A stretch of DNA of 64,000 bases, from positions 26,700 through 90,699 of the forward strand of contig CACZBS010000015.1 of NCBI GenBank assembly GCA_902779455.1, written 5' to 3'. Below are positions 3,893 through 62,555 of this stretch, piece after piece. Source of the stretch: an uncultured Prevotellaceae bacterium (lineage in GTDB: Bacteria; Bacteroidota; Bacteroidia; Bacteroidales; Bacteroidaceae). The translations under genes were made by a program, and so were the position numbers. How positions within the stretch are numbered: the stretch's first letter is position 1; every line of letters starts with the position of its first letter. A model generated the notes under the pieces. That model saw only the letters and a list, made by a program, of their open reading frames with translations. It made no database searches and had not been told where the DNA came from.

Positions 3893-4049
3893 CGGCCCCT
3901 CCTGCCGGCCCTCGGCCGTGGGCCCTAACGTCCCCTTTTTCAACCCGATACAAGAAAAGGGCCGATGAAATTTTGCGGTTAGCGTTTTTTTTTGTACTTT
4001 TGCAAACTCTAAACCGAAATAAGTAAAACAAAAAAGTAATAGAAATCTG

Positions 4050-5345
4050 ATGAGAAAGAACTTTGTAGAAGAACTGCGCTGGCGCGGAATGCTGGCCCAG
4101 ATGATGCCCGGAACGGAAGAACTCCTGCAGAAGGAGATGGTCACGGCTTACCTCGGAACCGACCCGACGGCCGACTCACTACATATTGGCCACCTCTGTG
4201 GCATCATGATGCTGCGCCATCTGCAGCGCTGCGGCCACAGGCCCATCATCCTCGTCGGCGGAGCCACTGGCATGATCGGCGACCCCTCGGGCAAGAGCCA
4301 GGAGCGCAACCTGCTCAACGACGAGACGCTGCGCCACAACCAGGAGTGCATCAAACGGCAGGTGGCCAAGTTCCTCGACTTCGAGAGCCAGGACGAGAAC
4401 GCTGCCCTGATGGTCAACAACTACGACTGGATGAAGGACTTCACCTTCCTCGACTTCGCACGCGAGGTGGGCAAGCACATCACCGTCAACTATATGATGG
4501 CGAAGGACAGCGTCCAGCAGCGGCTCAACGGCACGGCACGCGACGGACTGTCGTTCACCGAGTTCACCTATCAGCTGCTCCAGGGCTACGACTTCCTCTA
4601 CCTCTATCAGCACTATGGCGTCAAGCTGCAGCTCGGCGGCAACGACCAGTGGGGCAACATGACCACCGGCACGGAGCTCATCCGCCGCACGCTGGGCTCT
4701 GAGGTGGAGACCTTCGCACTGACCTGCCCCCTGATCACCAAGTCGGACGGCAAGAAGTTCGGCAAGACGGAGAGCGGCAACATCTGGCTCGACCCCAAGC
4801 GCACCACCCCCTACCGCTTCTATCAGTTCTGGCTCAACGTCTCGGACGACGACGCCGAGCGCTATATCAAGATCTTCACGTCGCTCGACAAGGAGACCAT
4901 CGACGCCCTCGTCGAGGAGCATAAGGCCGATCCCGGACGCCGCGTGCTGCAGAAGCGGCTGGCTGAGGAGGTCACCATCATGGTCCACTCGCGCGAGGCC
5001 CTCGACATGGCCATCTCGGCATCCAACATCCTCTTCGGCAAGGCTACGCGCGAGGCCCTCGAGCAGCTCGACGAGCAGACATTCCTCGACGTGTTCGACG
5101 GCGTCCCGCAGTTTGAGATCGCGCCCGACCAGCTGGGCAAGCCCGCATCAGAGCTCTTCACCGTCGACACCAAGGTGTGCCAGTCGAAGCGCGAGATCCG
5201 CGAGTTCCTCAAGAGCGGCGCCCTCTCGCTGAACAAGGACAAGCTGGCCGACGACCGCGCCATCACGGCCGACGACCTGCTGGGCGGCAAGTATCTGCTC
5301 GTGCAGCGCGGCAAGAAGAACTACTATCTGATCGTAGTACGATAA
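4050..5345 (+). CDS. tyrS: Tyrosine--tRNA ligase
   Basis: [11 protein letters not shown] (HIGH motif), [18 protein letters not shown] (KMSKS motif), C-terminal S4-like RGKKNYYL. Confidence 0.98.
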
Positions 5346-5361
5346 TAAAATATGGTGAGAT

Positions 5362-6321
5362 ATGCGACGGGTCATAGGAATTGGCGAGACCGTTCTCGAC
5401 ATCATCTTTAAGGACGACCAGCCCATCGGCGCTGTGCCAGGCGGGTCAGTGTTCAACGGCATCATCTCGCTCGGACGATCGGGCGTGTCGGCCTCCTTCA
5501 TCAGCGAGGCCGGCAACGACCGCGTCGGCCGGTCCATCATCAAGTTCCTGCGCGACAACGGCGTCGACGCTGACGCCGTCAACGTCTATCCTGACTCCAA
5601 GTCGCCCATCTCGCTCGCCTTCCTCGACGAGAAGAACGACGCCGAGTATATCTTCTACAAGGATCATCCGCGCGACCAGCTCGACTTCGCCTATCCGCCC
5701 GTCAGCCGCGACGACGTCGTCATGTTCGGATCGTTCTATGCCGTCAATCCGGCCATACGTCCGCAGGTCGTCGGATTCCTTGAGTATGCCCGGCAGCGCG
5801 GCGCCATCCTCTATTACGACGTCAACTTCCGCGCTTCCCACAAGAACGACCTGCTGCGCGTGCAGCCCAACCTGCTCGAGAACCTCGAGCTGGCCGACAT
5901 CGTGCGCGGATCGGCTGAGGACTTCCAGGTCATGTTCGGCAAGTCGGACGCTGACCAGATCTACCGCTCGCAAATCGCGTTCTACACCCGCAAGTTCATC
6001 TGCACCCGCGGCGCCGAGCCCGTCGAGCTGCGGGCCGAGGACCCCGCCACGGGCGGCACGCTGAAGAAGCAATACCCCGTGGCCCACACCGAGCGCGTCA
6101 TCAGCACCATCGGCGCCGGCGACAACTTCAACGCCGGCTTCGTCTACGGACTCATCCGCTACGGCATCACCCGCGACGTCATCGAGCGGGGACTGACCGA
6201 ACAGCAGTGGGACGACGTCATCCGCCAGGCCCAGCTCTTCTCCGCCAACGTCTGCCAGAGCATCAACAACAGCGTCGACCAGGCCTTCGGCGACGAAATG
6301 AAGCAGCAGCTGATTTATTGA
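5362..6321 (+). CDS. PfkB-family carbohydrate kinase
   Basis: GIGETVLD, PGGS, YYDVNFR and the PfkB signature STIGAGDNFNAGF. Confidence 0.92.
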   Translation: MRRVIGIGETVLDIIFKDDQPIGAVPGGSVFNGIISLGRSGVSASFISEAGNDRVGRSIIKFLRDNGVDADAVNVYPDSKSPISLAFLDEKNDAEYIFYKDHPRDQLDFAYPPVSRDDVVMFGSFYAVNPAIRPQVVGFLEYARQRGAILYYDVNFRASHKNDLLRVQPNLLENLELADIVRGSAEDFQVMFGKSDADQIYRSQIAFYTRKFICTRGAEPVELRAEDPATGGTLKKQYPVAHTERVISTIGAGDNFNAGFVYGLIRYGITRDVIERGLTEQQWDDVIRQAQLFSANVCQSINNSVDQAFGDEMKQQLIY

Positions 6322-6323
6322 AG

Positions 6324-6412
6324 GATCCCGAAATCCCGGAATCTCAAAATCCCGAAATCTCGATATAACGATATAACGAAATAACGAAAATAACGAAATC
6401 CCGAAAAAAGAA
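6324..6412 (+). repeat. Tandem 8-mer array (ATCCCGAA/ATAACGAA)
   Basis: About 10 degenerate 8-nt units between the kinase and fprA genes. Confidence 0.8.
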
Positions 6413-6435
6413 AGAATAAAAAAAGCCCCAAGACT

Positions 6436-16132: not shown

Positions 16133-18508
16133 CTAATTCTTAATCAGTTTCATGGCTTCCTCGTAGCTGAGGTCCTTAGCGCGTTCGTGCATGGCCTTCG
16201 GCAGACGGTAGTTCTTGCCGTCGTAGCAGAGGTAGGGACCGAAGCGACCGTTGAGCACCTCGAGCTTGGGGTCCTCGTCGAAGGTCTTCAGATGACGCTG
16301 GGCGTCGGCCTTGCGCTTCTCGTCGATGAGTTTCACGGCCTCGGCGATGGTGATGGTCAGCGGGTCGGCACCCTTGGGCAGCGAGGTGTAGACGCCCTTG
16401 TGGAGCACGTAGGGTCCGAAGCGGCCGGTGCCGATGTTGACGGGCTGTCCCTCGTATTCGCCGAGCATGCGTGGCAGCCGGAAGAGCTCGAGGGCCTGCT
16501 CCATGGTGATGGTCTCGATGCTGAGCTCTTTGGGCATGTGGGCAAACTGGGGCTTGTCCTTGTCGTCGGCCGAGCCGATCTGTACGACGGGTCCGAAGCG
16601 TCCGATCTTGACGAAGACGGGCTTGCCCGACTTGGGGTCGATGCCCAGCTGTCGCTCGCCGGCTTTGTGCTCGGAGCGCTGGTTGAGGGTCTTCTCGACG
16701 GAGGGCTCGAAGTCGTGATAGAAGTCCTTGATCATGGTGTTCCACTGCTCCTTGCCCTCGGCAATCAGGTCGAAGTCCTGCTCGACGCGGGCCGTGAAGT
16801 TGTAGTCCATGATGGTGGGGAAGTGCTTCATGAGGAAGTCGTTGACGACGGTGCCCACGTCGGTGGGGATGAGCTTGCCCTTGTCTGAGCCGGTGGTCTC
16901 GGTGCGGGTCTTCTGGGTGATCTGCTTGCCCTTGAGCAGGAGCACGTTGTACTTGTGCTCTTCGCCTTTCTTGTCGCCCTTGACGACGTATTCGCGCTGC
17001 TGGATGGTCGAGATGGTGGGGGCATAGGTCGACGGGCGGCCGATGCCGAGCTCCTCGAGTTTATGGACGAGCGAGGCCTCAGAGTAGCGCTGCGGTCCGA
17101 CGCTCGAGCGCTCCAGGGCGCTGATCTCGCGGCGGATGAGCTCCTGTCCCTCGTGGAGCGGCGGCAGCACGTGGGCAAACTCGTCGGTGTTCTCGTCGTC
17201 GTCGTCCTGCGACTCGCGATATACTTTCAGGAATCCGTCGAACTTGACGACCTCGCCGGTGGCGACGAACTGAGAGTTGAGAGTTGAGAGTTGAGAGGTA
17301 TGATTAGTTACGTTGGTGCTGGCCTGAGAGTTATCATACCTCTCAGTTCCCAGTTCTCCGTTCTCAATTCTTATCGTGACCGTCGTCTTCTCAATCTCGG
17401 CGTCGGCCATCTGCGAGGCGGCCGTGCGCTTCCAGATGAGGTCGTAGAGGCGGCGCTCCTGCACCGTGCCCTCGATCGTGGTCTGGTCCATATAGGTGGG
17501 GCGGATGGCCTCGTGGGCCTCCTGGGCACCCTTCGACGAGGTGTGATACTGTCGCACCTTCGAATAGTCGCCGCCGTAGAGCTCGGTGATCTTATCCTTA
17601 GCCGAGTTGATGGCCAGGCTGGAGAGGTTGACCGAGTCCGTACGCATGTAGGTGATGCGTCCGCTCTCGTAGAGGTGCTGGGCGACCATCATCGTCTGGC
17701 TGACGGTGAAGCCGAGCTTGCGGGCGGCCTCCTGCTGCAGCGTCGAGGTGGTGAAGGGCGGTGCGGGCACGCGCTTCTGCGGCTTCTTCTGGATCTGCTC
17801 GATGGTGAACGTGGCGTCCTTGCAGAGCTCGAGGAACTGCTCGGCCTCCTGCTGCGACTTGAAGCGCTGGCCGAGCGTGGCCTTCACTTCCGACTGCGAC
17901 CCGTCGGCATTCACGACGCCGAAGGTGGCGCTGACGCTGTAGTAGGTCTCGCTCTTGAAGGCCTGCAGTTCGCGCTCGCGCTCAACGATGAGGCGCACGG
18001 CGACGCTCTGCACGCGTCCGGCCGAGAGGGCGGGCTTCACCTTGCGCCAGAGCACGGGCGACAGCTTGAAGCCGACGAGTCGGTCGAGCACGCGGCGTGC
18101 CTGCTGCGCGTTGACCAGGTTCATGTCGAGCGTGCGCGGATGCTCGATGGCGGCGAGGATGGCGGGTTTGGTGATTTCATGGAACACGATGCGCTTCGTC
18201 TTCTGCTCGTCGAGCCCGAGCACCTCGCACAGGTGCCATGAGATGGCCTCTCCCTCGCGGTCCTCATCGCTTGCGAGCCACACCTGCGAGGCTTTCTTGG
18301 CTTGCGACTTGAGCTCGCTGACCAGCTTTTTCTTCTCGTCGGGAATCTCGTATTCGGGTTCCATCGTGTTGTCGTCGATGCTGAGTTCGCGCTTCTTCAG
18401 GTCACGGATGTGACCATAGCTTGACATCACTTTGTAGTCATCGCCCAAAAACTTCTCAATGGTCTTGGCTTTTGCCGGCGACTCTACTATGACAAGGTTC
18501 TTTTGCAT
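16133..18508 (-). CDS. topA: DNA topoisomerase I
   Basis: VIVESPAK, SDEDREGE, SAGRVQS, ITYMRTDS (catalytic Tyr) and Bacteroidota C-terminal GRFGPY repeats. Confidence 0.98.
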   Translation of the reverse strand: MQKNLVIVESPAKAKTIEKFLGDDYKVMSSYGHIRDLKKRELSIDDNTMEPEYEIPDEKKKLVSELKSQAKKASQVWLASDEDREGEAISWHLCEVLGLDEQKTKRIVFHEITKPAILAAIEHPRTLDMNLVNAQQARRVLDRLVGFKLSPVLWRKVKPALSAGRVQSVAVRLIVERERELQAFKSETYYSVSATFGVVNADGSQSEVKATLGQRFKSQQEAEQFLELCKDATFTIEQIQKKPQKRVPAPPFTTSTLQQEAARKLGFTVSQTMMVAQHLYESGRITYMRTDSVNLSSLAINSAKDKITELYGGDYSKVRQYHTSSKGAQEAHEAIRPTYMDQTTIEGTVQERRLYDLIWKRTAASQMADAEIEKTTVTIRIENGELGTERYDNSQASTNVTNHTSQLSTLNSQFVATGEVVKFDGFLKVYRESQDDDDENTDEFAHVLPPLHEGQELIRREISALERSSVGPQRYSEASLVHKLEELGIGRPSTYAPTISTIQQREYVVKGDKKGEEHKYNVLLLKGKQITQKTRTETTGSDKGKLIPTDVGTVVNDFLMKHFPTIMDYNFTARVEQDFDLIAEGKEQWNTMIKDFYHDFEPSVEKTLNQRSEHKAGERQLGIDPKSGKPVFVKIGRFGPVVQIGSADDKDKPQFAHMPKELSIETITMEQALELFRLPRMLGEYEGQPVNIGTGRFGPYVLHKGVYTSLPKGADPLTITIAEAVKLIDEKRKADAQRHLKTFDEDPKLEVLNGRFGPYLCYDGKNYRLPKAMHERAKDLSYEEAMKLIKN
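17271..17372 (-). repeat. Palindromic 7-mer-armed element in frame within topA
   Basis: Stem gagaggtatgat/atcatacctctc with (ctctcaa)3; encodes IENGELGTERYDNSQ...TSQLSTLNSQ; AT-richer than the flanking codons. Confidence 0.8.
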
Positions 18509-19123: not shown

Positions 19124-19198
19124 GCTTGGATTATTTCGATTGTTTGGTTCGGAAAAAGATTGAATTATTTCGATTGTTTGTTTGGTTCGGCAAAAGAT

Positions 19199-19384
19199 AG
19201 AGACCCCACCCCCAACCCCTCCCCTTGAAGGGAGGGGAGCAGCTGCGCCGTCATCCCCGTCGGGCAGTGCGCCAGCCACCCCCCTCCTTTGGAGGGGTCG
19301 GGGGAGGCCTCTCCCCTCCTTCGGAGGGGTCGGGGGAGGCTTTCTCCCCTCCCTTCAAGGGGAGGGGTTGGGGGTGGGGTCTCT
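19199..19384. repeat. MITE/REP-like element copy A (~42-bp terminal inverted repeats)
   Basis: agagaccccacccccaacccctccccttgaagggaggggag ... ctcccctcccttcaaggggaggggttgggggtggggtctct. Confidence 0.9.
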
Positions 19385-19495
19385 AACTTTGGGGTCTCTA
19401 ACTTTGTCAGTGGCATAACACCAGCACAAATAACTGTAGGATCCTATGTCTGGGCAAAGTTACGTCTTTTCTCCGAGATGGCCAAATGATAATGC

Positions 19496-33548: not shown

Positions 33549-35011
33549 TCAGGAGGCGTGCGCATGCCTTGCGGGGAGGAACATGGGTATCAGAGCCACA
33601 CCGAGACCGTAATAGACGGCGTCGCCTGGCAGGGTCCATAGTTTAGCGAGAAGCATGGCGACGGTGCCCAGCAGCATGGAGAGCAGCACGGCGCGTTGAC
33701 TGAAACGACCCGGCAGCCACAGGGCGAAGCTGAGCGGGAAGAGGATGGCCACGGCGCGCAGACCCAGCGAGAGGAATCCCAAATCGTTGATGAACGTGCC
33801 GTCTATCATCAGCAGGGCCGCTCCTACAGCCACCAGCAGTAAGCCCACGATGGTGAGGCGTGTCTGAGCCAGTTGTCCGCCGATGCGGTTGCTGGGACTG
33901 ATGCGGGCAGGCAGGTTGCTGTAGACGTCGCGCACCAGGATGGTGGCCGCGCCGAGCGACAGCCCGCTGCCGCAGCCAATGATGTTGATGAGCAGTGTGC
34001 CCAGCATGATGCCGCCCAGCCAGGCGGGCAGGTGATGCAGGATGAAAGCGGGGAAGGCCTGTGCCGACCCTTCGATGACGCCCAGCGTGGCAGGCAGCTG
34101 CTCGCCGGCCTGCTCGTAGAACTGTGCCAGCAGTTCGAAGACCTCGAGCTGCATGTCCTTCATCCCCAGCGACACGGCAATGTGCTCGGGGCGGCGCAGC
34201 TGACTGACGGCTTCGATGAAATCGCCCTTTTTGGCATAGACTTTCGCTCGTTCTACGCAGGTGAAGTAGACCAGCCGGCGGTAGGCCGTGGTGTCGATGA
34301 GCTGCAGCTGGCGGTCGAAGACGCCGATGGCGTCGTCGTAGCGCTGACGGTCGAGGAGTGTGTAGGCCTCGTGGAGCAGTTTGTTGTATCGTCGGAGCCA
34401 GGCCGTGGGCCCCGTCTCGGGCAGTTGGCTGTATCGCTGCCATTGGGCCTCGACCGACGGGATGCCGTGCTGGATGGAGGCCATCGAGAGGACGTCGGTG
34501 CAGGCCATGTCGGTGTGGAGGTCGTCGGCGGTGCGCAGTCCGGCGTCGAGGGCCATGATGTAGTAGTCGAGGGCCTGGGTGCCCAGTTCGAAGTTGTCGG
34601 TCTCCTCGGAGATGGTCTGATACATGCAGCCCAGTCCGATGTAGATGTTGGCGTCCTCGATGCCGGCCTCGTCGGCGATCTCGCGGGCCTGCGCCAGGTA
34701 TTCGAAGCACTTGGGATAGTCGAAGTAGTCGTAGTAGAAGATGCGCCACAGCCGCATGTTGGCATCCTTGGAGAGGCGTTTCTCGCGGGGCGTCATGCGG
34801 GGTCGTAGCGGTGGACGACGATGTTGTAGCAGACGAGGGCCGAGTCCTTCGTGCCTCCGTCGGCGCTGTCGTGGTCGCCCATCTGCATGAGCTGCTCTGA
34901 GGGCAGTGCGAGCCACTGCTGGTGCATGCGGCTCTGCTCGGCCGCCCTCGCGTCGGCGACGGAGATCAGATATAAGATAATAGATAACAGATAATAGATA
35001 ACAGATGTCAT
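33549..35011 (-). pseudogene. Frameshifted chimera: TPR sensor N-terminus fused in frame to the C-terminal TM half of a sodium:solute symporter-like protein
   Basis: ATG 35011 frame ends RYDPA*; the next frame continues MTPREKRL (frameshift near 34800). TPR sequence switches at about 34100 to QAFPAFILHHLPAWLGGIMLGTLLINIIGCGSGLSLGAATILVRDVY. Confidence 0.75.
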
Positions 35012-35139
35012 TGGAATCGTCGTTTGCCCGACAAAAGTACGAATAATTCGGCAGACGGCAAAAGGAATGGTCTTATAAAAAAATATAAAAAACAGCGGAT
35101 AATGATTGTCGATTTGCGGGCTTTTCGTAATTTTGCGCC

Positions 35140-35493
35140 ATGAAGCGCCGTGAAACGATAGGCCGCCGATGGAGGGCATGGATGCTGCTGGCAGTGTTCG
35201 TGCCGATGCTCTTGATGTCGGCTCTCCACGTGCACGGGGGCTCCGGCGCCTGGCAGGACGCGTGCTCCGAGTGCGTCGACCACCATTGTGGCGGTCATCT
35301 GGGGCAGTATGCTGGCGGAGCGATCCACGACTGCGTGCTCTGCCAGTTTCTGACGCTGACCTTTGTTCCGGCCGTCGTCGCCACGGCTATTATATATTAT
35401 AATGTGGTGCGGCTTGGGCGAGTGGAGCTCGCCGGGCGCATCGTCCTTAGGAACCAGGGTGTCGTCGGTCTGAGGGCACCGCCGGTGCAGTGA
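35140..35493 (+). CDS. DUF2946-like Cys/His-rich leader protein with C-terminal RAPP motif
   Basis: Hydrophobic N-terminal segment; HVH, CSEC, HHCGGH and HDCVLC; ends GLRAPPVQ*. TAATTTTG promoter motif just upstream. Confidence 0.8.
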   Translation: MKRRETIGRRWRAWMLLAVFVPMLLMSALHVHGGSGAWQDACSECVDHHCGGHLGQYAGGAIHDCVLCQFLTLTFVPAVVATAIIYYNVVRLGRVELAGRIVLRNQGVVGLRAPPVQ

Positions 35494-35615
35494 ATAGTTA
35501 ATAGTTTATAGTTATGATTAGACTTGCTGCTTGTTTAAGCCTGAGTCTTTTCATCGACTAATCATAGCTATTCACTATTAACTATTCACTGTTCACTATT
35601 CACTATAAACTATTT
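35491..35615. repeat. 31-bp hairpin with TATTCAC-type 7-mer arms
   Basis: 35491-35521 pairs with 35558-35588 (3 mismatches); further 7-mers extend to about 35615. Confidence 0.85.
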
Positions 35616-35629
35616 ATTCTTTTTACAAC

Positions 35630-37981
35630 ATGAATAAACTCAGACAATTATATATTGTGCTGACGTTGCTGTGCGTCGGCACGGCGCTGACGGCTGCTCC
35701 GCTGGCACGCAAGACCACGCTCAGCGGACACGTCAGCGACGCCACCACTGGTGAGGCCGTGGTCGGCGCAAGCATCTATTTCCCACAGCTCAAGGCCGGC
35801 ACGCTCAGCGACGCTCAGGGCGACTATCGGCTCGAGGGGCTGCCCCAGATCCGCACGACGGTGCAGGTGAGCTATGTGGGCCATCAGACGATCATCGAGA
35901 CGGTCGACCTGCGCACGACCGAGCGGCTCGACTTCCGCCTGCAGGAGAACAACGCGATGCTCGACGAGGTGGTCGTCACGGGACTGACGGGCTCGTCGCT
36001 GGCCGCCCGCTCGCCGTCGCCGGTCAGCGTGGTCAGCCAGCGGACGCTGATGGAGACGGCGTCGACGAACGTCATCGACGCCGTGGCCCGCCAGCCGGGC
36101 GTCAGTCAGCTGACCACGGGCACGGGCATCTCGAAACCCGTCGTCCGCGGCTTGGGCTATAACCGCATTGTCGTCGTCAACGACGGCATGCGCCAGGAGG
36201 GCCAGCAGTGGGGCGACGAGCACGGCATCGAGGTCGATGCGCAGACGGTCCACTCGGTGGAGATCCTCAAGGGCCCGGCCTCGCTGATGTATGGCTCCGA
36301 CGCCATGGCCGGCGTGCTCGTCATGCACGAGCAGCCCGTCATGCCGCAGGGACAGATGGCGGCGACGGTGGGCGGCGAGTATCAGTCGAACCAGCGGCTG
36401 TGGGACTATACAGCCAGCTTCGCCGGCAACCGCGGCGGCGTGGTCTGGAACTGGCGGTGGAGCGAGAAGGACGCCGGCGAATATGAAAACCGGCGCGACG
36501 GTCGCGTCGGCGGGTCGCAGTTTCATGAGCGCGCCCTGACGGGTATGCTCGGACTGAACCGCGCCTGGGGCTACTCGCACCTGAAGCTCTCGGGCTATCA
36601 CATCAAGCCGGGCCTCGTCACGGGCCACCGCCATGACGACGGCTCGCTGGAGCCGTCGGAGGCTTTCCAGAAAATCTTTCACTATAAGGCAGCCCTCGAC
36701 AACTCGTTCGTCCTTGGCGACGGCACGCTGAAGGCCGTCGTGGGCTATCAGCTGAACCGCCGACAGGAGTTCGGCCATGACCACGACCACGGCGAACATG
36801 AGCATGAAGACGGGGAGCATCACGACGACGATGAGGCCGATGAACATGAGCATGAGCACCACCATGAGGCCGGTGAGGCGGGCCTCGACTTCCGCCTGCA
36901 CACGGTCAACTACGACGTCCACTATCAGGCTGCGCCCAGCGACGAGTGGCAGTATGCGGCCGGCGTCTCAGGCATGTGGCAGCGCTCGGAGAACCTGGGC
37001 GAGGAGGTGCTCATACCGGCCTACCGACTGTTCGACGTGGGCCTCTTCGCCTCCGCCACGCGCTCGCTCGACCGGCTGACGCTCAGCGGCGGCCTTCGCT
37101 ACGACCACCGCCGCCTGCACAGCTATGCGCTGGAGCACGACGGCGAGCAGCACTTCCGCGACTTCCGTCGCTCGTTCAGCGGTCTGACGGGCAGCCTCGG
37201 CGCCATCCTCAACCTGACCGACCGAATGAACCTCAGGCTGAACCTCTCGCGAGGCTTCCGCGCACCCAACCTCAGCGAGCTGGGCTCCAACGGTCAGCAC
37301 GAGGGCACCTTCCGCTACGAGATAGGCAACGCCGAACTGGCGCCCGAGTTCTCCTGGCAGGGCGACGTGGGCTTCGACTTCTCATCGGACGTCCTGTCAG
37401 CCCAGCTGTCGCTGTTTGTCAATCATATCGACAACTTCATCTACCTCAAGCGCCTGCCCGGCTTGACTGACCGCTTCAGCTATACCTCCGGCGACGCCCG
37501 CCTCTGGGGCGGCGAGGCGCTCGTCGACATCCACCCCGTGGAGCCGCTGCACTTCGAGAACACCTTTTCGATGGTCAGTGCACGACAGCTGCACCAGCCG
37601 GCCGACGCCCGCTGGCTGCCCTTCACGCCGGCACCACGCTGGACGAGCGACCTGCGTTACGACATCGTGCGCGACGGCCGCCGTCTGCTCAACAACACGT
37701 TTGCGGCCGTCGGACTGGAGTGCTACCTGCGGCAGAGCCATGCCCACACGGCCAACCAGACGGAGACGCCCACGCCCAGCTACACGCTGGTGCATCTCTC
37801 GGCCGGCACCGACTTCAACCTGCGCGGACGCCGCCTGTGCACGCTCCTGCTCACCGTCCAGAACCTCTTCGACCGCTACTACACGTCGCACCTCAGCCGG
37901 CTGAAGTATGCTGAGGACGGACCCGTCGGCGGCATGGGCCGCAACATCGCCCTCAAACTGCAAGTGCCTATCACACTTTGA
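35630..37981 (+). CDS. TonB-dependent receptor with His/acidic loop (probable metal uptake)
   Basis: N-terminal carboxypeptidase-regulatory-like domain; plug SKPVVRG...QQWGDEHG...ILKGPASLMYGSDAMAGV; loop GHDHDHGEHEHEDGEHHDDDEADEHEHEHHHE; C-terminal GRN...KLQVPITL. Confidence 0.93.
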   Translation: MNKLRQLYIVLTLLCVGTALTAAPLARKTTLSGHVSDATTGEAVVGASIYFPQLKAGTLSDAQGDYRLEGLPQIRTTVQVSYVGHQTIIETVDLRTTERLDFRLQENNAMLDEVVVTGLTGSSLAARSPSPVSVVSQRTLMETASTNVIDAVARQPGVSQLTTGTGISKPVVRGLGYNRIVVVNDGMRQEGQQWGDEHGIEVDAQTVHSVEILKGPASLMYGSDAMAGVLVMHEQPVMPQGQMAATVGGEYQSNQRLWDYTASFAGNRGGVVWNWRWSEKDAGEYENRRDGRVGGSQFHERALTGMLGLNRAWGYSHLKLSGYHIKPGLVTGHRHDDGSLEPSEAFQKIFHYKAALDNSFVLGDGTLKAVVGYQLNRRQEFGHDHDHGEHEHEDGEHHDDDEADEHEHEHHHEAGEAGLDFRLHTVNYDVHYQAAPSDEWQYAAGVSGMWQRSENLGEEVLIPAYRLFDVGLFASATRSLDRLTLSGGLRYDHRRLHSYALEHDGEQHFRDFRRSFSGLTGSLGAILNLTDRMNLRLNLSRGFRAPNLSELGSNGQHEGTFRYEIGNAELAPEFSWQGDVGFDFSSDVLSAQLSLFVNHIDNFIYLKRLPGLTDRFSYTSGDARLWGGEALVDIHPVEPLHFENTFSMVSARQLHQPADARWLPFTPAPRWTSDLRYDIVRDGRRLLNNTFAAVGLECYLRQSHAHTANQTETPTPSYTLVHLSAGTDFNLRGRRLCTLLLTVQNLFDRYYTSHLSRLKYAEDGPVGGMGRNIALKLQVPITL

Positions 37982-37997
37982 CGACCTGATTGTTCTT

Positions 37998-38172
37998 AAA
38001 CCGCGAATTTATTTTAGAACCACGAATTAAACGAATTGAACGAATTTTTTAGAACCACGAATTAAGCGAATTAAGCGATTTTTTAAAACAACGTATTGAA
38101 CGAATTAAACGAATTGGCAGCGGATTACTTGTGCGCAGCCAATTCGTTTAATTCGTTTAATTCGTGGTTAAG
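37998..38172. repeat. 9-mer (ACGAATTAA) array forming an inverted repeat
   Basis: ccacgaattaaacgaattgaacgaat occurs repeatedly, then the inverted arm caattcgtttaattcgtttaattcgtgg; lies between convergent genes. Confidence 0.85.
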
Positions 38173-38193
38173 AATAATTCGGGGTGCGGGCCG

Positions 38194-39684
38194 TCAGCGG
38201 CGGAAGTACTTGCCGACGACGGGCAGGGAGCTCAGCGGCAGGTCGCGGCGGACGATGAGGGCCACGAAGATGAGGATGAGCAGCGTGTTGACGGCCAGTT
38301 GCGGGATGAGCGGCAGACTGGCGGTCAGCGTCATGCCGACGTAGAGCGCGGCGGCCACGACGACGTAGAGCGCCATGTCGGCCAGCGGATAGTCGATCTT
38401 GTAGTAGTGCTGGCCGATGAAGTAGCTGAGGAGCATCGACACGGCGTAGGCAGCGAAGCCGGCCCAGGCGCAGGCCATGTAGCCGTAGCGCGGGATTAGG
38501 GCGACGTCGATGGCGATGAGCACCACGGCGCCGATGCCCGAGAAGTAGGCGCCCCAGATGGTGCGGTCGGTCAGCTTATACCAGAAGGAGAGGTTGAAGA
38601 AGACGCCGAACATGATCTCGGCGGCCATGACGATGGGCACCACGCGCAGACCCTCCCAGTAGCTCTCGCCGATGATGAACTTCAGCAGGCCGAGATAGCC
38701 CATGACCGCGAGGAAGGCCAGCAGCGTGAAGATGAGGTAGAACTTCATCGCCTGGGCGTAGGTCTCGCGGTTGTCGCGGTCCTTCGACTTGCCGAAGACG
38801 AAGGGCTCGTAGGCGAAGCGGAAGGCCTGGGTGATCATGACCATAATCATCGCAATCTTGATGCAGGCGCCGTAGATGCCCAACTGGGCGCGGGCCTCGT
38901 CGACCGAGCCGTCGTAGAGGTAGGGGAAGAGGATCTGCGAGGCGGCCTGGTTGAGCTGTCCGGCGACGCCCATGACGAGCAGCGGCCACGTGTAGGCCAG
39001 CATGCGGCGGCAGGCGGCCCAGTCGAATCCGAAACGGATGCCCCGCAGCTCCTTGTAGAGCATGAGCAGCGTGGCGACGGTGCAGACGAGGTTGATGTAG
39101 AAGACGAAGGCCACGTCGAGCGTGAACGCCTCGTCGTAGATGCCCAGCGGGTCCCACCTGAGTGCCGGCAGCGCGATGAGGTAGAGCACGTTGAGCGTGA
39201 TGTTCAGCAGGATGTTGATGATCTTCAGGGCGGCGAACTTCACCGGCTTGTGCTGATAGCGCAGGTAGGCGAAGGGGATGGCCGTGAAGGCGTCGATGGC
39301 CACCGTGGCGTACATCACGCCGACATACTCCGGGTGGTCGCCGTAGCCTATGGCCGTGGCGATGGGGTCAAGCAGCAGGAGCACCACGACGATGCTCAGC
39401 AGCGACGTCGCGGCCAGCATGCGCAGCGTCGTCGAGTAGATGCGTTGCGGCTGTTCGCCCTCGCGGTTCATGAAGCGGAAGAAGGTTGTCTCCATGCCGA
39501 ACGTCAGCAGGATGATGAGAATCGAGACGTAGGCGTAGACGTTGGTGATGACGCCGTATTCGCCGCCGGAGGCCGCGAAGCGTGCCGTCTGGATGGGCAC
39601 CAGCAGGTAGTTGATGAATCGGGCGACGATGCTCGACAGTCCGTAGATGGCCGTGTCCTTGGCCAGCGATTTCAGGTTGGGCAT
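38194..39684 (-). CDS. Polysaccharide flippase (Wzx/MOP family)
   Basis: LKSLAKDTAIYGLSSIVARF, TFGMETTFFRF and many TM helices. Confidence 0.88.
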   Translation of the reverse strand: MPNLKSLAKDTAIYGLSSIVARFINYLLVPIQTARFAASGGEYGVITNVYAYVSILIILLTFGMETTFFRFMNREGEQPQRIYSTTLRMLAATSLLSIVVVLLLLDPIATAIGYGDHPEYVGVMYATVAIDAFTAIPFAYLRYQHKPVKFAALKIINILLNITLNVLYLIALPALRWDPLGIYDEAFTLDVAFVFYINLVCTVATLLMLYKELRGIRFGFDWAACRRMLAYTWPLLVMGVAGQLNQAASQILFPYLYDGSVDEARAQLGIYGACIKIAMIMVMITQAFRFAYEPFVFGKSKDRDNRETYAQAMKFYLIFTLLAFLAVMGYLGLLKFIIGESYWEGLRVVPIVMAAEIMFGVFFNLSFWYKLTDRTIWGAYFSGIGAVVLIAIDVALIPRYGYMACAWAGFAAYAVSMLLSYFIGQHYYKIDYPLADMALYVVVAAALYVGMTLTASLPLIPQLAVNTLLILIFVALIVRRDLPLSSLPVVGKYFRR

Positions 39685-39699: not shown

Positions 39700-39790
39700 T
39701 TATTCGTTATCTCGTTATAACGTTATTTCGTTATAACGGCATTCCGGCATTTCGTTATAACGTTATATCGTTATTCCGACATTTCTTTAT
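39700..39790 (-). repeat. Tandem 8-mer array (ATAACGAA family)
   Basis: Reverse complement reads ataacgatataacgttataacgaaatgccgga...; same family as 6324-6412. Confidence 0.75.
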
Positions 39791-41171: not shown

Positions 41172-41260
41172 GGGAAGGGCGGGGCAGCCCCGCTCCCGCC
41201 GGGCAGTGCGCCAGCCGCTCCCCTCCCTTCAAGGGGAGGGGCCGGGGGTGGGGTCTGTAA
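41172..41260. repeat. MITE/REP-like element copy C (right arm only)
   Basis: ctcccctcccttcaaggggaggggccgggggtggggtctgtaa. Confidence 0.8.
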
Positions 41261-41307
41261 CTATTTCTGCGTAAAGAAGGCACTCACACTTCCTCGGATT
41301 TAAAGTC

Positions 41308-41502
41308 AGAGACCCCACCCCCAACCCCTCCCCTTGAAGGGAGGGGAGTGGCTGCGCCGTCATTCCCATTATTGCGCCGCCCCATTATTGTGCCGCCCCA
41401 TTATTGTGCCGCCCCGATATTGTGCCGCCTCGTTATTGCCCCGTCATCCCTGTCGGGCCGTGTGCTAACCACTCCCCTCCTTCGGAGGGGCCGGGGGAGG
41501 CT
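41308..41502. repeat. MITE/REP-like element copy D with five internal 16-nt tandem units
   Basis: Left terminal repeat as in copy A; cccattattgtgccgc x5 at 41365-41444. Confidence 0.85.
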
Positions 41503-44656: not shown

Positions 44657-44701
44657 ATCGTTGTTTTTTAGTTGTTATTTCTATATTTACACCGTCTTGC
44701 A

Positions 44702-44769
44702 GTAGGAGGCGACGTGTCCCACGTCGCAATCCAGCAGCTTGTTGCGACGTGAGACACGTCGCCTCCTAC
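44702..44769. repeat. GTAG-type REP doublet (REPIN-like)
   Basis: gtaggaggcgacgtgtcccacgtcgcaa ... ttgcgacgtgagacacgtcgcctcctac. Confidence 0.8.
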
Positions 44770-44904
44770 TTGTGCGCTGCAAAGTTAAGCATTTTTTTCG
44801 AAACAGACTTTGCATAATCGCGCATCGACTTTGCATAATTCGACAAAATCTTTGCACAATCGCGCATTTGGATTTGTTTTGCATCTAAATGCACTATATT
44901 GCTT

Positions 44905-44988
44905 CCGTCACGGCGTGACCGCATGCCGTCACGACGTGACGCCATGAAACCACGTCGTGACGGCATGCCGTCACGTCGTGACGGAATG
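44905..44988. repeat. 21-nt tandem array, second copy (4 units)
   Basis: ccgtcacgNcgtgacgNcatg units as at 11279. An unrelated 21-nt-period array (actttgcataatcgcgcat) precedes it at about 44796-44860. Confidence 0.85.
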
Positions 44989-62263: not shown

Positions 62264-62394
62264 GTTCGGGCGGTGATGAAGTCAGATGTCTTTTCAGTGT
62301 GCAAATTTATAAAATAAAGGTCAAAACGACGAGAGAATTTAGAAAAAAGTGTTACCTTTGCAGCTGATTTTTAAGTAACCACTAATATGATAAA

Positions 62395-62521
62395 GTTACA
62401 GACCCCACCCCCGACCCCTCCCCTTGAAGGGAGGGGAGCGGCTACCGCCCTGACCGCCGCATGGGACTCCGCAGGCACTCCCCTCCCTTCAAGGGGAGGG
62501 GTCGGGGGTGGGGTCTGTAAC
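62395..62521. repeat. MITE/REP-like element copy E
   Basis: gttacagaccccacccccgacccctccccttgaagggaggggag ... ggggtctgtaac, between promoter TACCTTTG (62353-62360) and ATG 62556. Confidence 0.9.
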
Positions 62522-62555
62522 ATTTTTAACGCTCACTAAAAAAGAAAAACGAACA

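Follow-up and report, generated by a model that had tools for sequence, protein, structure and literature searches.

In Bordetella pertussis, the DUF2946 protein CruR (Bp2923) is the product of a small gene that opens its operon and directly precedes the gene for a TonB-dependent transporter; its output is Rho-dependent termination of transcription ahead of the receptor gene (Roy et al. 2022, PMC9426467). The CxxC and RAPP motifs of CruR and other DUF2946 proteins are separated by 45 ± 2 residues, and more than 95% of DUF2946 members have an N-terminal export signal or an N-in transmembrane segment (PMC9426467). CutF of Rhodobacter capsulatus is a DUF2946-like protein (Ozturk et al. 2023, PMC9973294; bioRxiv 10.1101/2025.02.05.636593). 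ApdA, ApdP, and ApcA are RAPP-class arrest peptides (PMC7897499, PMC10951233, PMC12992588). Each is a small exported or membrane protein with an R-A/G-P-P core near its C terminus, and its gene precedes the one that it regulates, an arrangement shared by the leader reported here; these three regulate Sec/YidC components, whereas our leader family adjoins TonB receptor genes. A 2025 survey lists TonB-dependent receptors among the genes enriched downstream of RAPP/RGPP upstream ORFs (uORFs) in Gram-negative phyla (PMC12992588); in the part of it available, the TonB class is treated in aggregate, and no Bacteroidales family, ligand pattern, promoter geometry, or RNA helix is described.

The locus analysed here lies in a 64,000-nt stretch of DNA from an uncultured Prevotellaceae bacterium, a rumen Prevotella (the window). 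Its leader is a member of a large, unnamed family of Bacteroidales, apparently a new version of the CruR/DUF2946 copper-sensing leader switch of proteobacteria. To our knowledge, the only demonstrated cases of metal uptake controlled by an arrest peptide come from two proteobacteria, and in both the metal is copper. The leader family would carry this control into the Bacteroidota, the dominant phylum in the rumen and gut, which uses neither Shine-Dalgarno sequences nor sigma-70 promoters. The preliminary description of the locus knew of no characterised example in this phylum, and a literature search likewise found no characterised family member in Bacteroidota and was silent on the family upstream of BT1420/BT1419 in B. 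thetaiotaomicron; the pairing of RAPP/RGPP uORFs with TonB receptors, however, had already been covered by the 2025 survey. A text search of Table S1 of PMC9426467 returned no entry with the stem Bacteroid or the name Prevotella.

The leader ORF (35140-35493, plus strand, as are the -7 box, the window hairpin, and the receptor features below) begins with ATG and encodes a DUF2946-like, Cys/His-rich peptide of 117 aa, MKRRETIGRRWRAWMLLAVFVPMLLMSALHVHGGSGAWQDACSECVDHHCGGHLGQYAGGAIHDCVLCQFLTLTFVPAVVATAIIYYNVVRLGRVELAGRIVLRNQGVVGLRAPPVQ, which ends in GLRAPPVQ before the stop codon (35491-35493). It contains two hydrophobic segments, residues 14-29 (WMLLAVFVPMLLMSAL, 35179-35226), a predicted N-in signal anchor, and residues 69-90 (QFLTLTFVPAVVATAIIYYNVV, 35344-35409), the latter supported by alignment, AF2, and charge analysis. 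Between them lies a Cys/His loop (residues 30-68, 35227-35343), the predicted periplasmic metal-sensing part, with the pattern HxH...CxxCxxHHCxGH...HxCxxC and the ligand motifs H30-V-H32, C42-S-E-C45, H48-H49-C50-G-G-H53 (HHCGGH), and H63-D-C65-V-L-C68. The RAPP motif, R112-A-P-P115, is encoded by AGG GCA CCG CCG (35473-35484), and a gap of 136 nt (35494-35629) separates the leader from the receptor gene. The ORF, its HxH, CSEC, HHCxxH, and HDCVLC motifs, its C-terminal end, the RAPP codons, and the gap to a TonB receptor gene were all given correctly in the preliminary description, which had also noted more metal ligands than a single CxxC, in agreement with the 5 Cys and about 7 His of the loop. 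The low-confidence AF2 model of the leader (pLDDT 67.5, pTM 0.36) contains two helices, one of them formed by residues 5-29, and a disordered loop. An alternative start at M15 (35182), prompted by shorter database entries, was ruled out because the basic N-terminal residues, of which R9 is nearly invariant, and the promoter geometry favour M1. Across the family, the N terminus has on average 4.1 K+R and leads into a hydrophobic segment of 16 residues without charges, and the loop has means of 0.2 K+R, 4.4 D+E, 5.0 Cys, and 6.8 His; the positive-inside rule thus predicts that the loop is periplasmic.

A profile search placed the size of the family at 635 clusters at 50% identity. Species-level loci number 274, nearly all of them from rumen Prevotellaceae, a word-based search gave 281 matches, and several cultured Prevotella are carriers. 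The family has no Pfam entry of its own, and its members are often missed by gene callers. Eleven residues are invariant in an alignment of 118 homologues (H30, H32, C45, C50, G52, H53, C65, C68, R112, P114, and P115). The C-terminal motif stands 2 to 6 residues before the stop codon in 256 of 267 family proteins, as RAPP (210), RGPP (43), or RSPP (3), and the remaining 11 proteins are without it and look truncated. The only substitutions seen within RAPP are A to G and A to S, both of which retain arrest experimentally, and natural variation in the RAPP class is likewise confined to RAPP, RGPP, and RSPP (PMC12992588). The distance from CxxC (C65-V-L-C68) to RAPP is 43 intervening residues in the window leader and in 215 of these 267 proteins, and 42 to 44 in 238. 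A Parabacteroides subfamily that is only 27% identical nevertheless retains RAPP/RGPP, so the family-wide conservation of the motif, which the preliminary description had proposed to check, is borne out; the spacing counted from the Parabacteroides homologue is also 43. The dN/dS of the family is 0.10 to 0.29 and low along the whole ORF. A GC-rich genome (59%) yields many spurious long ORFs, and a gene-calling artefact with a fortuitous RAPP might be suspected here; such a chance ORF is refuted by the conservation data, namely hundreds of homologues with invariant ligands under purifying selection, together with fixed spacing, synteny, and promoter-to-start geometry, and its probability is negligible.

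The Pfam DUF2946 HMM (PF11162) matched the window leader over profile positions 8-117 of 117 with E = 3.7e-4, and an HMM match of this kind had been suggested as a check; it is full length, but its 21.7 bits fall just below the gathering score of 23.7 bits, and of 118 family members compared with this model, just 4 came out at E < 0.01. Homology to DUF2946, judged from this sub-threshold match and the shared architecture, therefore looks likely rather than established. The best 150 matches listed by an exhaustive profile search were all family members, with no true DUF2946 among them, and a tblastn search against plasmids returned no true DUF2946 sequence, only the Parabacteroides relative and a Rhizobium match, which is spurious, lying inside a GGDEF/EAL gene on the other strand. 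CruR and the leader family have in common the first-gene position before a TonB-dependent transporter, an N-terminal export signal (predicted here), an invariant CxxC, RAPP near the C terminus, and a fixed spacing between the two (45 in CruR, 43 here). They differ in that the CruR loop holds one CxxC and a semi-conserved Cys, compared with 5 Cys and about 7 His in the leader family, and in that the second hydrophobic segment is absent from CruR. The partner receptor is OprC-like for CruR and ZnuD/heme-like for the leader family, a PepSY_TM gene, which forms part of the comparison with CruR, is absent from the family, and the metal, copper for CruR, is probably not copper here. From the identity of the motif with those of ApdA, ApdP, and CruR, we infer that ribosomes stall at RAPP, and the metal response of the leader is likewise putative. 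Taken with the TonB synteny described below, the DUF2946 match, RAPP conservation, and CxxC-RAPP spacing support the original suggestion of a Bacteroidota version of the CruR-type switch, and we assign a probability of about 0.7 to the leader being a CruR/DUF2946-type regulatory arrest peptide for the downstream TonB receptor gene.

The -7 box of Bacteroidetes sigma-A promoters spans -12 to -5 and is followed by 4 to 5 nt to the transcription start site (Baez 2019, PMC6847099). Such a box, TAATTTTG (35128-35135), lies 4 nt (CGCC) before the leader ATG, the geometry TAnnTT(T/C)G-N4/5-ATG/GTG occurs in 54 of 85 family ORFs, and an alignment of 53 loci gave the promoter consensus TTcGTAcCTTTGCAGCCGTGAA. 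Because the box is 4 to 5 nt from the start codon, the transcription start site is predicted at or within 1 nt of it, implying that the leader mRNA would be leaderless, unlike that of CruR. A Fur-box-like sequence, GATAATGAT (35098-35106), was dropped, as it is not conserved in the same alignment of 53 loci. Only three RNA runs contained the window sequence, at 6-7% of sampled words, and all of these are contigs without usable 5' ends or coverage; one 151-nt contig (35091-35241) spans the predicted transcription start and may derive from DNA or from an antisense transcript.

The receptor gene (35630-37981) encodes a protein of 783 aa with CarboxypepD_reg, Plug (PF07715, 8.8e-22), and TonB_dep_Rec_b-barrel (PF00593, 6.7e-42) domains. 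In all 76 informative loci, that is, those with enough downstream sequence, the leader is followed by a TonB receptor gene on its own strand, and metatranscriptome contigs cross from leader into receptor gene at one locus (L058). The synteny with His-rich TonB receptors envisaged in the preliminary description holds for the receptor but not for the His-rich loop, which is not a family feature: the His/Asp/Glu-rich stretch HDHDHGEHEHEDGEHHDDDEADEHEHEHHH (aa 383-412, 36776-36865) has counterparts at this position only in L001 and L030, and the other receptors have His runs elsewhere or none. The closest relatives of the window receptor are of the ZnuD and heme-receptor type, and ZnuD (PDB 4RDR) is the nearest solved structure (E = 6e-16) and also the top NCBIfam match for a class-B family receptor (L006). 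The window receptor scores 97.7 bits with the ZnuD model NF038289, and family receptors score 98 to 148 bits, all far below the equivalog cut-off of 950 bits. ZnuD and the window receptor each have a His/Asp-rich stretch; unlike ZnuD, the window receptor carries a CarboxypepD_reg domain at its N terminus, as is typical in Bacteroidota. In partner operons there are genes for DUF4625 lipoproteins with Asp/His tails, and a Fur-family repressor gene adjoins the Parabacteroides locus. The receptor probably imports a divalent metal, zinc being the favoured candidate, and the family bears on which metal limits Prevotella in the rumen.

These neighbours also bear on whether the arrest peptide might respond to something other than metal, such as membrane insertion or secretion capacity or periplasmic disulfide/redox status, as SecM, MifM, VemP, and thioredoxin-linked RAPP uORFs do. 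The leader combines an N-terminal export signal with a further hydrophobic segment some 25 residues away from the arrest point, a layout typical of arrest peptides that are released by force, its several Cys pairs could form disulfides, as proposed for CutF, and RAPP uORFs are known upstream of DsbA/thioredoxin genes (PMC12992588). However, the regulated gene is always a metal/heme-type TonB-dependent receptor and never Sec, YidC, or Dsb, His is as frequent as Cys among the invariant residues, and the His-rich receptor loops, Asp/His-tailed lipoproteins, and neighbouring Fur-family regulator all point to metal, which makes such a sensor improbable.

It is also rather unlikely that the leader acts mainly as a stable small inner-membrane metalloprotein that partners the receptor, as a periplasmic metal relay or part of the uptake machinery, with RAPP a mere pause that aids insertion or metal loading. 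Segment 1 is unusually conserved among homologues (LLAVFVPML..SSLHxH); in it, as at the start of segment 2 (CVLCQFLTL), conservation goes far beyond what a generic signal anchor would require, about 5 Cys and 7 His could make two tetrahedral sites, and the low dN/dS extends over the entire ORF, all of which would suit a functional protein. RAPP and RGPP are nevertheless among the most strongly avoided tetrapeptides in bacterial proteomes and are enriched at the C termini of regulatory uORFs (PMC12992588), the motif always lies close to the stop codon with an RNA helix beginning exactly behind it, tandem leader copies precede a single receptor gene at some family loci, and CruR itself was not detected as a protein (PMC9426467). 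The two roles, metalloprotein and arrest leader, are not mutually exclusive.

Behind the motif, a helix is predicted family-wide at the position that a long hairpin occupies in the window. Relative to the end of the Pro-Pro codons, the median start of its 5' arm is -1 nt, and its 3' arm stops a median of 7 nt short of the receptor ATG. The helix energy is -11.9 kcal/mol with each locus's own arms versus -7.5 to -9.0 kcal/mol in three controls (p = 7e-5 to 8e-10), the helix is present in 46 of 72 minimum-energy folds, and at least 12 different complementary arm sequences could be read off across loci. The predicted helix is thus one that covaries and joins the nucleotides just past the Pro-Pro codons to the receptor translation start region. 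No such helix is seen at roughly one in three loci, nor at the Parabacteroides locus (z = -0.7). Intergenic regions in most relatives are 40 to 60 nt long, so that the family pairs a short gap with a stop-to-start helix, whereas CruR has 162 nt with a Rho site.

The mechanism that we propose for the arrest leader has six steps, of which the first and fifth are drawn from sequence patterns and the second, third, fourth, and sixth we infer. A constitutive sigma-A promoter would place the 5' end of the transcript at the start codon or one base ahead of it, and the first ribosome would therefore load on a leaderless mRNA and trail RNA polymerase closely. The basic N terminus and segment 1 would then send the nascent chain to the membrane in the N-in orientation, and the acidic Cys/His loop would thread toward the periplasm. 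[quoted passage not shown] The invariant CxxC, 43 residues back, would at this point be separated from the peptidyl-transferase centre by roughly the combined length of the exit tunnel and translocon, and the family bears on whether the 43-45-residue CxxC-RAPP distance is a ruler across the two. In the fourth step, the arrest would persist while metal is scarce, and folding of the metal-bound loop or insertion of segment 2 would pull on the chain and release it. This polarity is that of CruR and is sensible for an uptake receptor. In the fifth step, the arrested ribosome would cover the 5' arm of the helix, including the stop codon; with the 3' arm ending about 7 nt before the receptor ATG in most family members, the Shine-Dalgarno-independent initiation region would therefore be single-stranded and the receptor made, until release and termination let the helix close. 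In the sixth step, which concerns the window, what the stall affects may be transcript elongation, Rho access, or processing instead of the accessibility of the start site.

CutF resembles the proposed leader in that a nascent exported peptide reads periplasmic metal through Cys, has a C-terminal proline-based stall, and uses the stalled ribosome to melt a stem-loop shielding the downstream translation start. The CutF stall is PPP, EF-P-dependent, and paired with CxxxC, compared with RAPP and CxxC in the leader family, and the CutF stem-loop shields a Shine-Dalgarno sequence, a signal that Bacteroidota do not use; the family thus bears on how a stalled ribosome turns on a downstream gene without one. 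Metal induces the CutF stall and switches a detoxifying oxidase on, and the opposite polarity is expected for the leader because the downstream gene encodes an uptake receptor. The fullest version of the proposal is that a leaderless arrest peptide reads a periplasmic non-copper metal, probably zinc, through a two-site Cys/His loop, and that the RAPP-stalled ribosome directly holds the receptor-start helix open, as the first translational metal switch in Bacteroidota. We put this forward tentatively; if true, the switch would differ in kind from CruR and CutF, and two-leader tandem operons would compute on two signals. Natural RAPP and CAPP variants in Parabacteroides distasonis, together with the cultured Prevotella carriers, make the switch testable.

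At the window locus itself, the output step is uncertain because the repeat hairpin ends about 32 nt before the receptor ATG. This long AT-rich hairpin of 7-nt repeats (35484-35596; core arms 35488-35521 and 35558-35591, inverted repeats I8 and I17) has 34 to 45 bp and a fold energy of -65.2 kcal/mol (z = -8.5), and its 5' arm, which opens with the final base of the second Pro codon, takes in the last two sense codons and the stop. A single-stranded, G-poor tract with the receptor translation initiation region follows (35592-35629, from composition and fold). In constrained folds, most of the hairpin survives the stall, and the pairing probability of the initiation region is 0.34 with a stalled ribosome versus 0.32 without, with no change; start-site unmasking is accordingly not claimed for the window.

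The equal accessibility of the initiation region with and without the stall would suit a CruR-like output, in which the same sensor is read by the lead ribosome controlling Rho- or hairpin-dependent termination between leader and receptor, at least in the window and L001. Bordetella CruR works in this way (PMC9426467), the 72 nt before the ATG (35558-35629) are strongly C-over-G (16 C, 2 G) and rut-site-like, a leaderless mRNA would couple polymerase and lead ribosome tightly, and repeat hairpins of the same kind stand at gene ends elsewhere in the window. However, half of the C-rich tract is locked inside the hairpin, and no U-tract directly follows the stem, where scans for sigma-70 promoters and intrinsic terminators, which are uninformative for Bacteroidota, found nothing. 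The short intergenic regions of most relatives leave too little room for Rho loading and show the start-site helix instead, and the L058 metatranscriptome contigs have no obvious drop across the junction, although this is weak evidence. Termination control is thus possible but doubtful.

Rfam gave only sub-threshold chance matches to the window hairpin. Its type of 7-nt repeat occurs in several other intergenic regions of the genome and in many unrelated metagenome contigs, and the window hairpin may therefore be a generic element. One further set of hairpins, made up of CGAATTAAA-type repeat units (inverted repeats I5, I7, and I11), lies at 38018-38181 between convergent gene ends, where the receptor gene meets a minus-strand gene ending at 38194, and likely marks the end of the two-gene operon.

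The leader is encoded at 35140-35493 on the forward strand, with exactly the coordinates given in the preliminary description, as a 117-amino-acid peptide with a basic N-terminal part and two hydrophobic segments (residues 14-29 and 69-90). Its Cys/His ligands are H30-x-H32, C42-SE-C45, H48-H49-C50-GG-H53, and H63-D-C65-VL-C68, and the peptide ends in GLRAPPVQ followed by the stop, with the RAPP codons at 35473-35484 on the forward strand. A gap of 136 nt separates the leader from a TonB-dependent receptor gene on the same strand (35630-37981), whose 783-amino-acid product contains CarboxypepD_reg, Plug, and barrel domains. Since the gene after the receptor is convergent, the leader and the receptor form a two-gene unit. 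At L058, a homologous leader locus in another genome, contigs from three metatranscriptome runs span the leader, the gap, and the receptor gene (4133-6414, 4160-4605, and 4313-4806), which fits a single transcript carrying both genes and could also arise from DNA carry-over. The minus-strand gene divergent from the window leader (33549-35179) seems to be split. Its N-terminal piece (ORF 34793-35179; likely start near 35010, at the Met of MTSVIYYLL...) overlaps a 455-amino-acid ORF (33549-34916) that is in a different frame and in which TPR-like sequence is joined to a C-terminal multi-pass membrane segment. The split could represent a frameshift, a pseudogene, or an assembly chimera.

Conservation shows the leader to be a real gene. 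Word matching retrieved 281 leader homologues, an exhaustive profile search yielded 635 clusters at 50% identity (413 of these at <1e-10), and a scan of one genome per species identified 274 leader loci. Among the loci listed, the carriers are nearly throughout rumen Prevotella and Prevotellaceae MAGs, plus isolates that include Prevotella aff. ruminicola Tc2-24, Prevotella sp. khp7, and Prevotella sp. MA2016. The closest leader, L001 from Prevotella sp. RGIG4424, shares 91% identity. Where named, the leader proteins are labeled as hypothetical proteins, and they have no Pfam family. In an alignment of 118 homologues, H30, H32, C45, C50, G52, H53, C65, C68, R112, P114, and P115 are invariant; C42, H48, and H63 are close to invariant, as are large parts of LLAVFVPML..SS and CVLCQFL. 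Pairwise dN/dS values within the family range from 0.10 to 0.29.

The arrest motif is conserved as well. R-x-P-P, scored at ≤15 residues from the C terminus, was found in 256 of 267 family proteins, as RAPP (210), RGPP (43), or RSPP (3), and the 11 proteins without it look truncated. In nearly all motif-bearing proteins, it lies 2 to 6 residues ahead of the stop. The only natural substitutions are Ala to Gly and Ala to Ser, both of which retain arrest activity according to a mutational study (PMC12992588), which also places RAPP and RGPP among the most avoided tetrapeptides of bacterial proteomes. A distant Parabacteroides subfamily (27% identity; hhalign probability, 95%) likewise ends in RAPP, with the same CxxC-to-RAPP spacing. 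The preliminary description had named loss of RAPP among homologues as a refuting result, and the conservation seen here does not refute the proposal. We consider it probable, at roughly 0.7, that the peptide is an RAPP-arrest regulatory leader for the receptor gene, and we hold the metal, polarity, and output step of the switch with less confidence.

The leader had been proposed as a Bacteroidota version of the CruR switch of Bordetella pertussis, in which copper releases an RAPP stall with a Rho-dependent output (PMC9426467). The hallmarks of CruR are all found in the leader family, including an export signal, CxxC, RAPP near the C terminus at a fixed spacing, and placement at the head of an operon that includes a TonB-dependent transporter (PMC9426467). 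In CruR, RAPP is three residues from the end and its spacing from CxxC is fixed within one or two residues (PMC9426467); this spacing is 45 in CruR and 43 in 215 proteins of the leader family. The DUF2946 HMM aligned over its full length (positions 8 to 117 of 117; E = 3.7e-4), but the score of 21.7 bits is below the gathering score of 23.7 bits, and only 4 of 118 relatives reached E < 0.01, which places the leader family outside Pfam DUF2946 as defined. Homology to DUF2946 is therefore suggested by a sub-threshold HMM match together with the shared architecture. DUF2946 proteins are reported from beta-, gamma-, and alphaproteobacteria and a few Planctomycetes, Firmicutes, and Deinococcus, and a text search of Table S1 returned no entry for Prevotella or for names beginning with Bacteroid or Flavobacter (PMC9426467).

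A Bacteroidetes −7 box, TAATTTTG, lies at 35128-35135 and is followed by CGCC and then the leader ATG. Of 85 family ORFs, 54 have a TAnnTT[T/C]G box exactly 4 or 5 nt ahead of an in-frame ATG or GTG, GTG being the commoner start after the box, and this promoter-linked start codon sits 11 to 14 codons upstream of the hydrophobic segment. The promoter consensus is TTcGTAcCTTTGCAGCCGTGAA. Because the Flavobacterium −7 box is located at −12 to −5, with 4 to 5 nt between it and the transcription start (PMC6847099), the leaders are predicted to be translated from leaderless mRNAs, a class that is rare in Bacteroidota (~4 to 5%). One 151-nt contig from an RNA run (35091-35241) spans the predicted start of the window leader and speaks weakly against a strictly leaderless transcript. 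The Parabacteroides subfamily appears, judged from sequence, to have a short 5′ untranslated region instead. The promoter alignment revealed no conserved motif besides the −7 box upstream of the leaders, which is compatible with a constitutive promoter and posttranscriptional control.

Across the family, the RNA immediately downstream of the Pro-Pro codons pairs with the stretch that directly precedes the receptor ATG. Pairing between the arms of the same locus gave −11.9 kcal/mol versus −7.7 kcal/mol with the arms of other loci, and the control pairings gave −7.7 (segment upstream of RAPP), −9.0 (first 43 nt of the receptor coding sequence), and −7.5 kcal/mol (shuffled partners), with P values from 7e-5 to 5e-10. 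This stop-to-start helix occurs in the minimum-energy folds of 46 of 72 loci; the median start of its 5′ arm is −1 nt relative to the end of the second Pro codon (interquartile range [IQR], −1 to +1), and its 3′ arm ends at a median of 7 nt ahead of the receptor ATG (IQR, 5 to 15). The arm sequences vary by lineage while complementarity is kept, as in TCTGTTTGA/TCAAACAGA, TCTCCATTT/AAATGGAGA, CTTTTTGAATGAG/CGTTCAAAAA, GCTGTCTG/CAGACAGC, and TGTTTTGGCGT/GCGTCAAAACA, and at least 12 complementary arm types were read by eye. Approximately one-third of the loci showed no clear helix, and neither did Parabacteroides (z = −0.7). A ribosome protects approximately 15 nt past the first P-site base, so that in the commonest layout, with two codons and then the stop, the whole 5′ arm would lie inside the arrested ribosome. 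Initiation in Bacteroidota proceeds without Shine-Dalgarno pairing and responds to RNA structure from −20 to +20. Receptor initiation should be blocked by a helix that reaches −7, and a stalled ribosome should relieve this block. The same logic was shown for CutF of Rhodobacter capsulatus, in which a copper-induced PPP stall melts a stem-loop over the downstream start; here it is proposed.

Folding of the 201 nt spanning the leader-receptor junction of the window gave −65.2 kcal/mol (z = −8.5). The 5′ arm of the hairpin opens with the final base of the second Pro codon (35484) and takes in the two remaining sense codons and the stop. This hairpin of 34 to 45 bp is far longer than the family helix and is made of 7-nt repeats, and a 7-nt AATAGTG indel after 35499 is polymorphic in one run. 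It ends ~32 nt ahead of the receptor ATG, and a stall would open the hairpin only at its base; the start region pairs with the same probability with and without the stall (0.34 versus 0.32). The 72 nt ahead of the ATG contain 16 C and 2 G, a tract that resembles a Rho loading site. Long hairpins of tandem ~7-nt units and their complements occur in several intergenic regions of the window (35484-35613, 38018-38181, 17267-17370, 39705-39790, and 44701-44988). Many unrelated rumen metagenome contigs contain matches to the TTCACTA array at 35568-35613, which has a word depth of 931 versus ~7 in its flanks (run X18). Because of the length of the hairpin, its distance from the ATG, the unchanged pairing, the similar repeats elsewhere, and the C-rich tract, several output steps are kept for this locus: the stall may affect initiation, RNA processing, or, as in CruR, termination (Rho- or hairpin-dependent). 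The window also contains at least three copies of a dispersed GC-rich palindromic repeat with ~50 nt per arm (...GACCCCACCCCCxACCCCTCCCCTTGAAGGGAGGGGAG...; 19193-19390, 41212-41354 with 41469-41495, and 62392-62524), which resembles REP or MITE elements.

The mean number of Lys and Arg residues in the leader family is 4.1 in the N terminus, 0.2 in the loop, and 2.5 in the tail after segment 2, and the 38-residue loop has means of 4.4 Asp+Glu, 5.0 Cys, and 6.8 His. By the positive-inside rule, this charge distribution predicts a periplasmic Cys/His loop, in the compartment into which the receptor releases its cargo. A low-confidence AF2 model contains helices at residues 5 to 29 and 62 to 105 and an unstructured loop. 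The ligands could form two tetrahedral sites, e.g., C42/C45/C50/H53 and H30/H32/C65/C68, the latter of which would clamp both hydrophobic segments together.

A TonB receptor ORF is next on the same strand in 76 of 80 fetched loci, mostly after a gap of 40 to 120 nt, and the other four loci end at contig edges. Class A receptors share 46 to 52% identity with the window receptor and are mostly in two-gene units. Class B receptors (~27% identity; ~694 amino acids) are followed by two small lipoproteins with Asp/His-rich tails, at least one of which is a DUF4625 protein (e.g., L006, 5309-6244; L058, 6502-7407; L081-L083, 10570-11492). These lipoproteins share a conserved IEIHNNFDHHTH motif and have a poly-Asp linker after the lipobox Cys and an Asp/His-rich C terminus (...EEEEDDDDHDHDHD). 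In Bacteroides, a role as lids of non-SusC TonB transporters has been proposed for DUF4625 lipoproteins (bioRxiv 10.1101/2023.03.17.533168), and the class B lipoproteins are candidate surface metal-capture lids. The preliminary description had the leader control a His-loop receptor. The loop is present in the window receptor, as a His/Asp/Glu-rich stretch at amino acids 383 to 412, but it is not family-wide: only the window, L001, and L030 have it there. In further class A receptors (L016, L051, L013, L024, and L043, among others), His runs lie elsewhere, some right after the signal peptide (NEHSHEQHWHGLLHNQHEH) and some near amino acid 590 (HHSHSTVAHHH). Because the runs differ in place among related receptors, metal-capturing segments may have been gained repeatedly and independently in class A. 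The nearest types for both classes are ZnuD and heme receptors, with scores far under the equivalog cutoffs, and a divergent Fur-family repressor adjoins the Parabacteroides locus. Our guess is that the cargo and signal is a divalent metal, most plausibly zinc.

This kind of switch is already known from CruR, CutF, and a 2025 survey (PMC12992588), which reports RAPP/RGPP upstream ORFs to be enriched ahead of TonB receptors in Gram-negative bacteria and copper-related ones to be absent from Bacteroidota. No characterized or described member from Bacteroidota was found in the literature searched. New here are a large Bacteroidales family not captured by Pfam, a far richer Cys/His ligand set with a second hydrophobic segment, a predicted periplasmic-loop topology, a predicted leaderless promoter geometry, a covarying stop-to-start RNA helix in a phylum without Shine-Dalgarno sequences, and partners that are ZnuD-like and DUF4625-associated rather than copper genes.

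Several loci deviate from the common arrangement. In Parabacteroides distasonis (L084; NZ_OY725763.1), an unannotated distant leader homologue (4968-5300) precedes a TonB receptor gene and two DUF4625 genes and adjoins the Fur-family gene, and the record annotates an opposite-strand hypothetical protein instead (4896-5180). In this strain, a single CGC-to-TGC change replaces RAPP with CAPP (a cluster of 13 sequences), and RAPP is present in the commoner Parabacteroides variant (145 sequences) and other relatives; judged by its sequence, the CAPP leader is a natural arrest-motif mutant. Some loci have tandem leader paralogues, two ahead of one receptor gene (L007, 3998-4789; L065), and a second paralogue type ends in ...RPRAPP and contains CYECAHHLPHHGHL. 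Another locus (L080) has three leaders within 2.7 kb (1655-2017, 2358-2759, and 3989-4342), and a receptor fragment lies between them. A 3.5-kb contig binned as "Candidatus Saccharibacteria" (L010; JAGCNM010000060.1) also carries a leader typical of Prevotella (54% identity) and is probably mis-binned.
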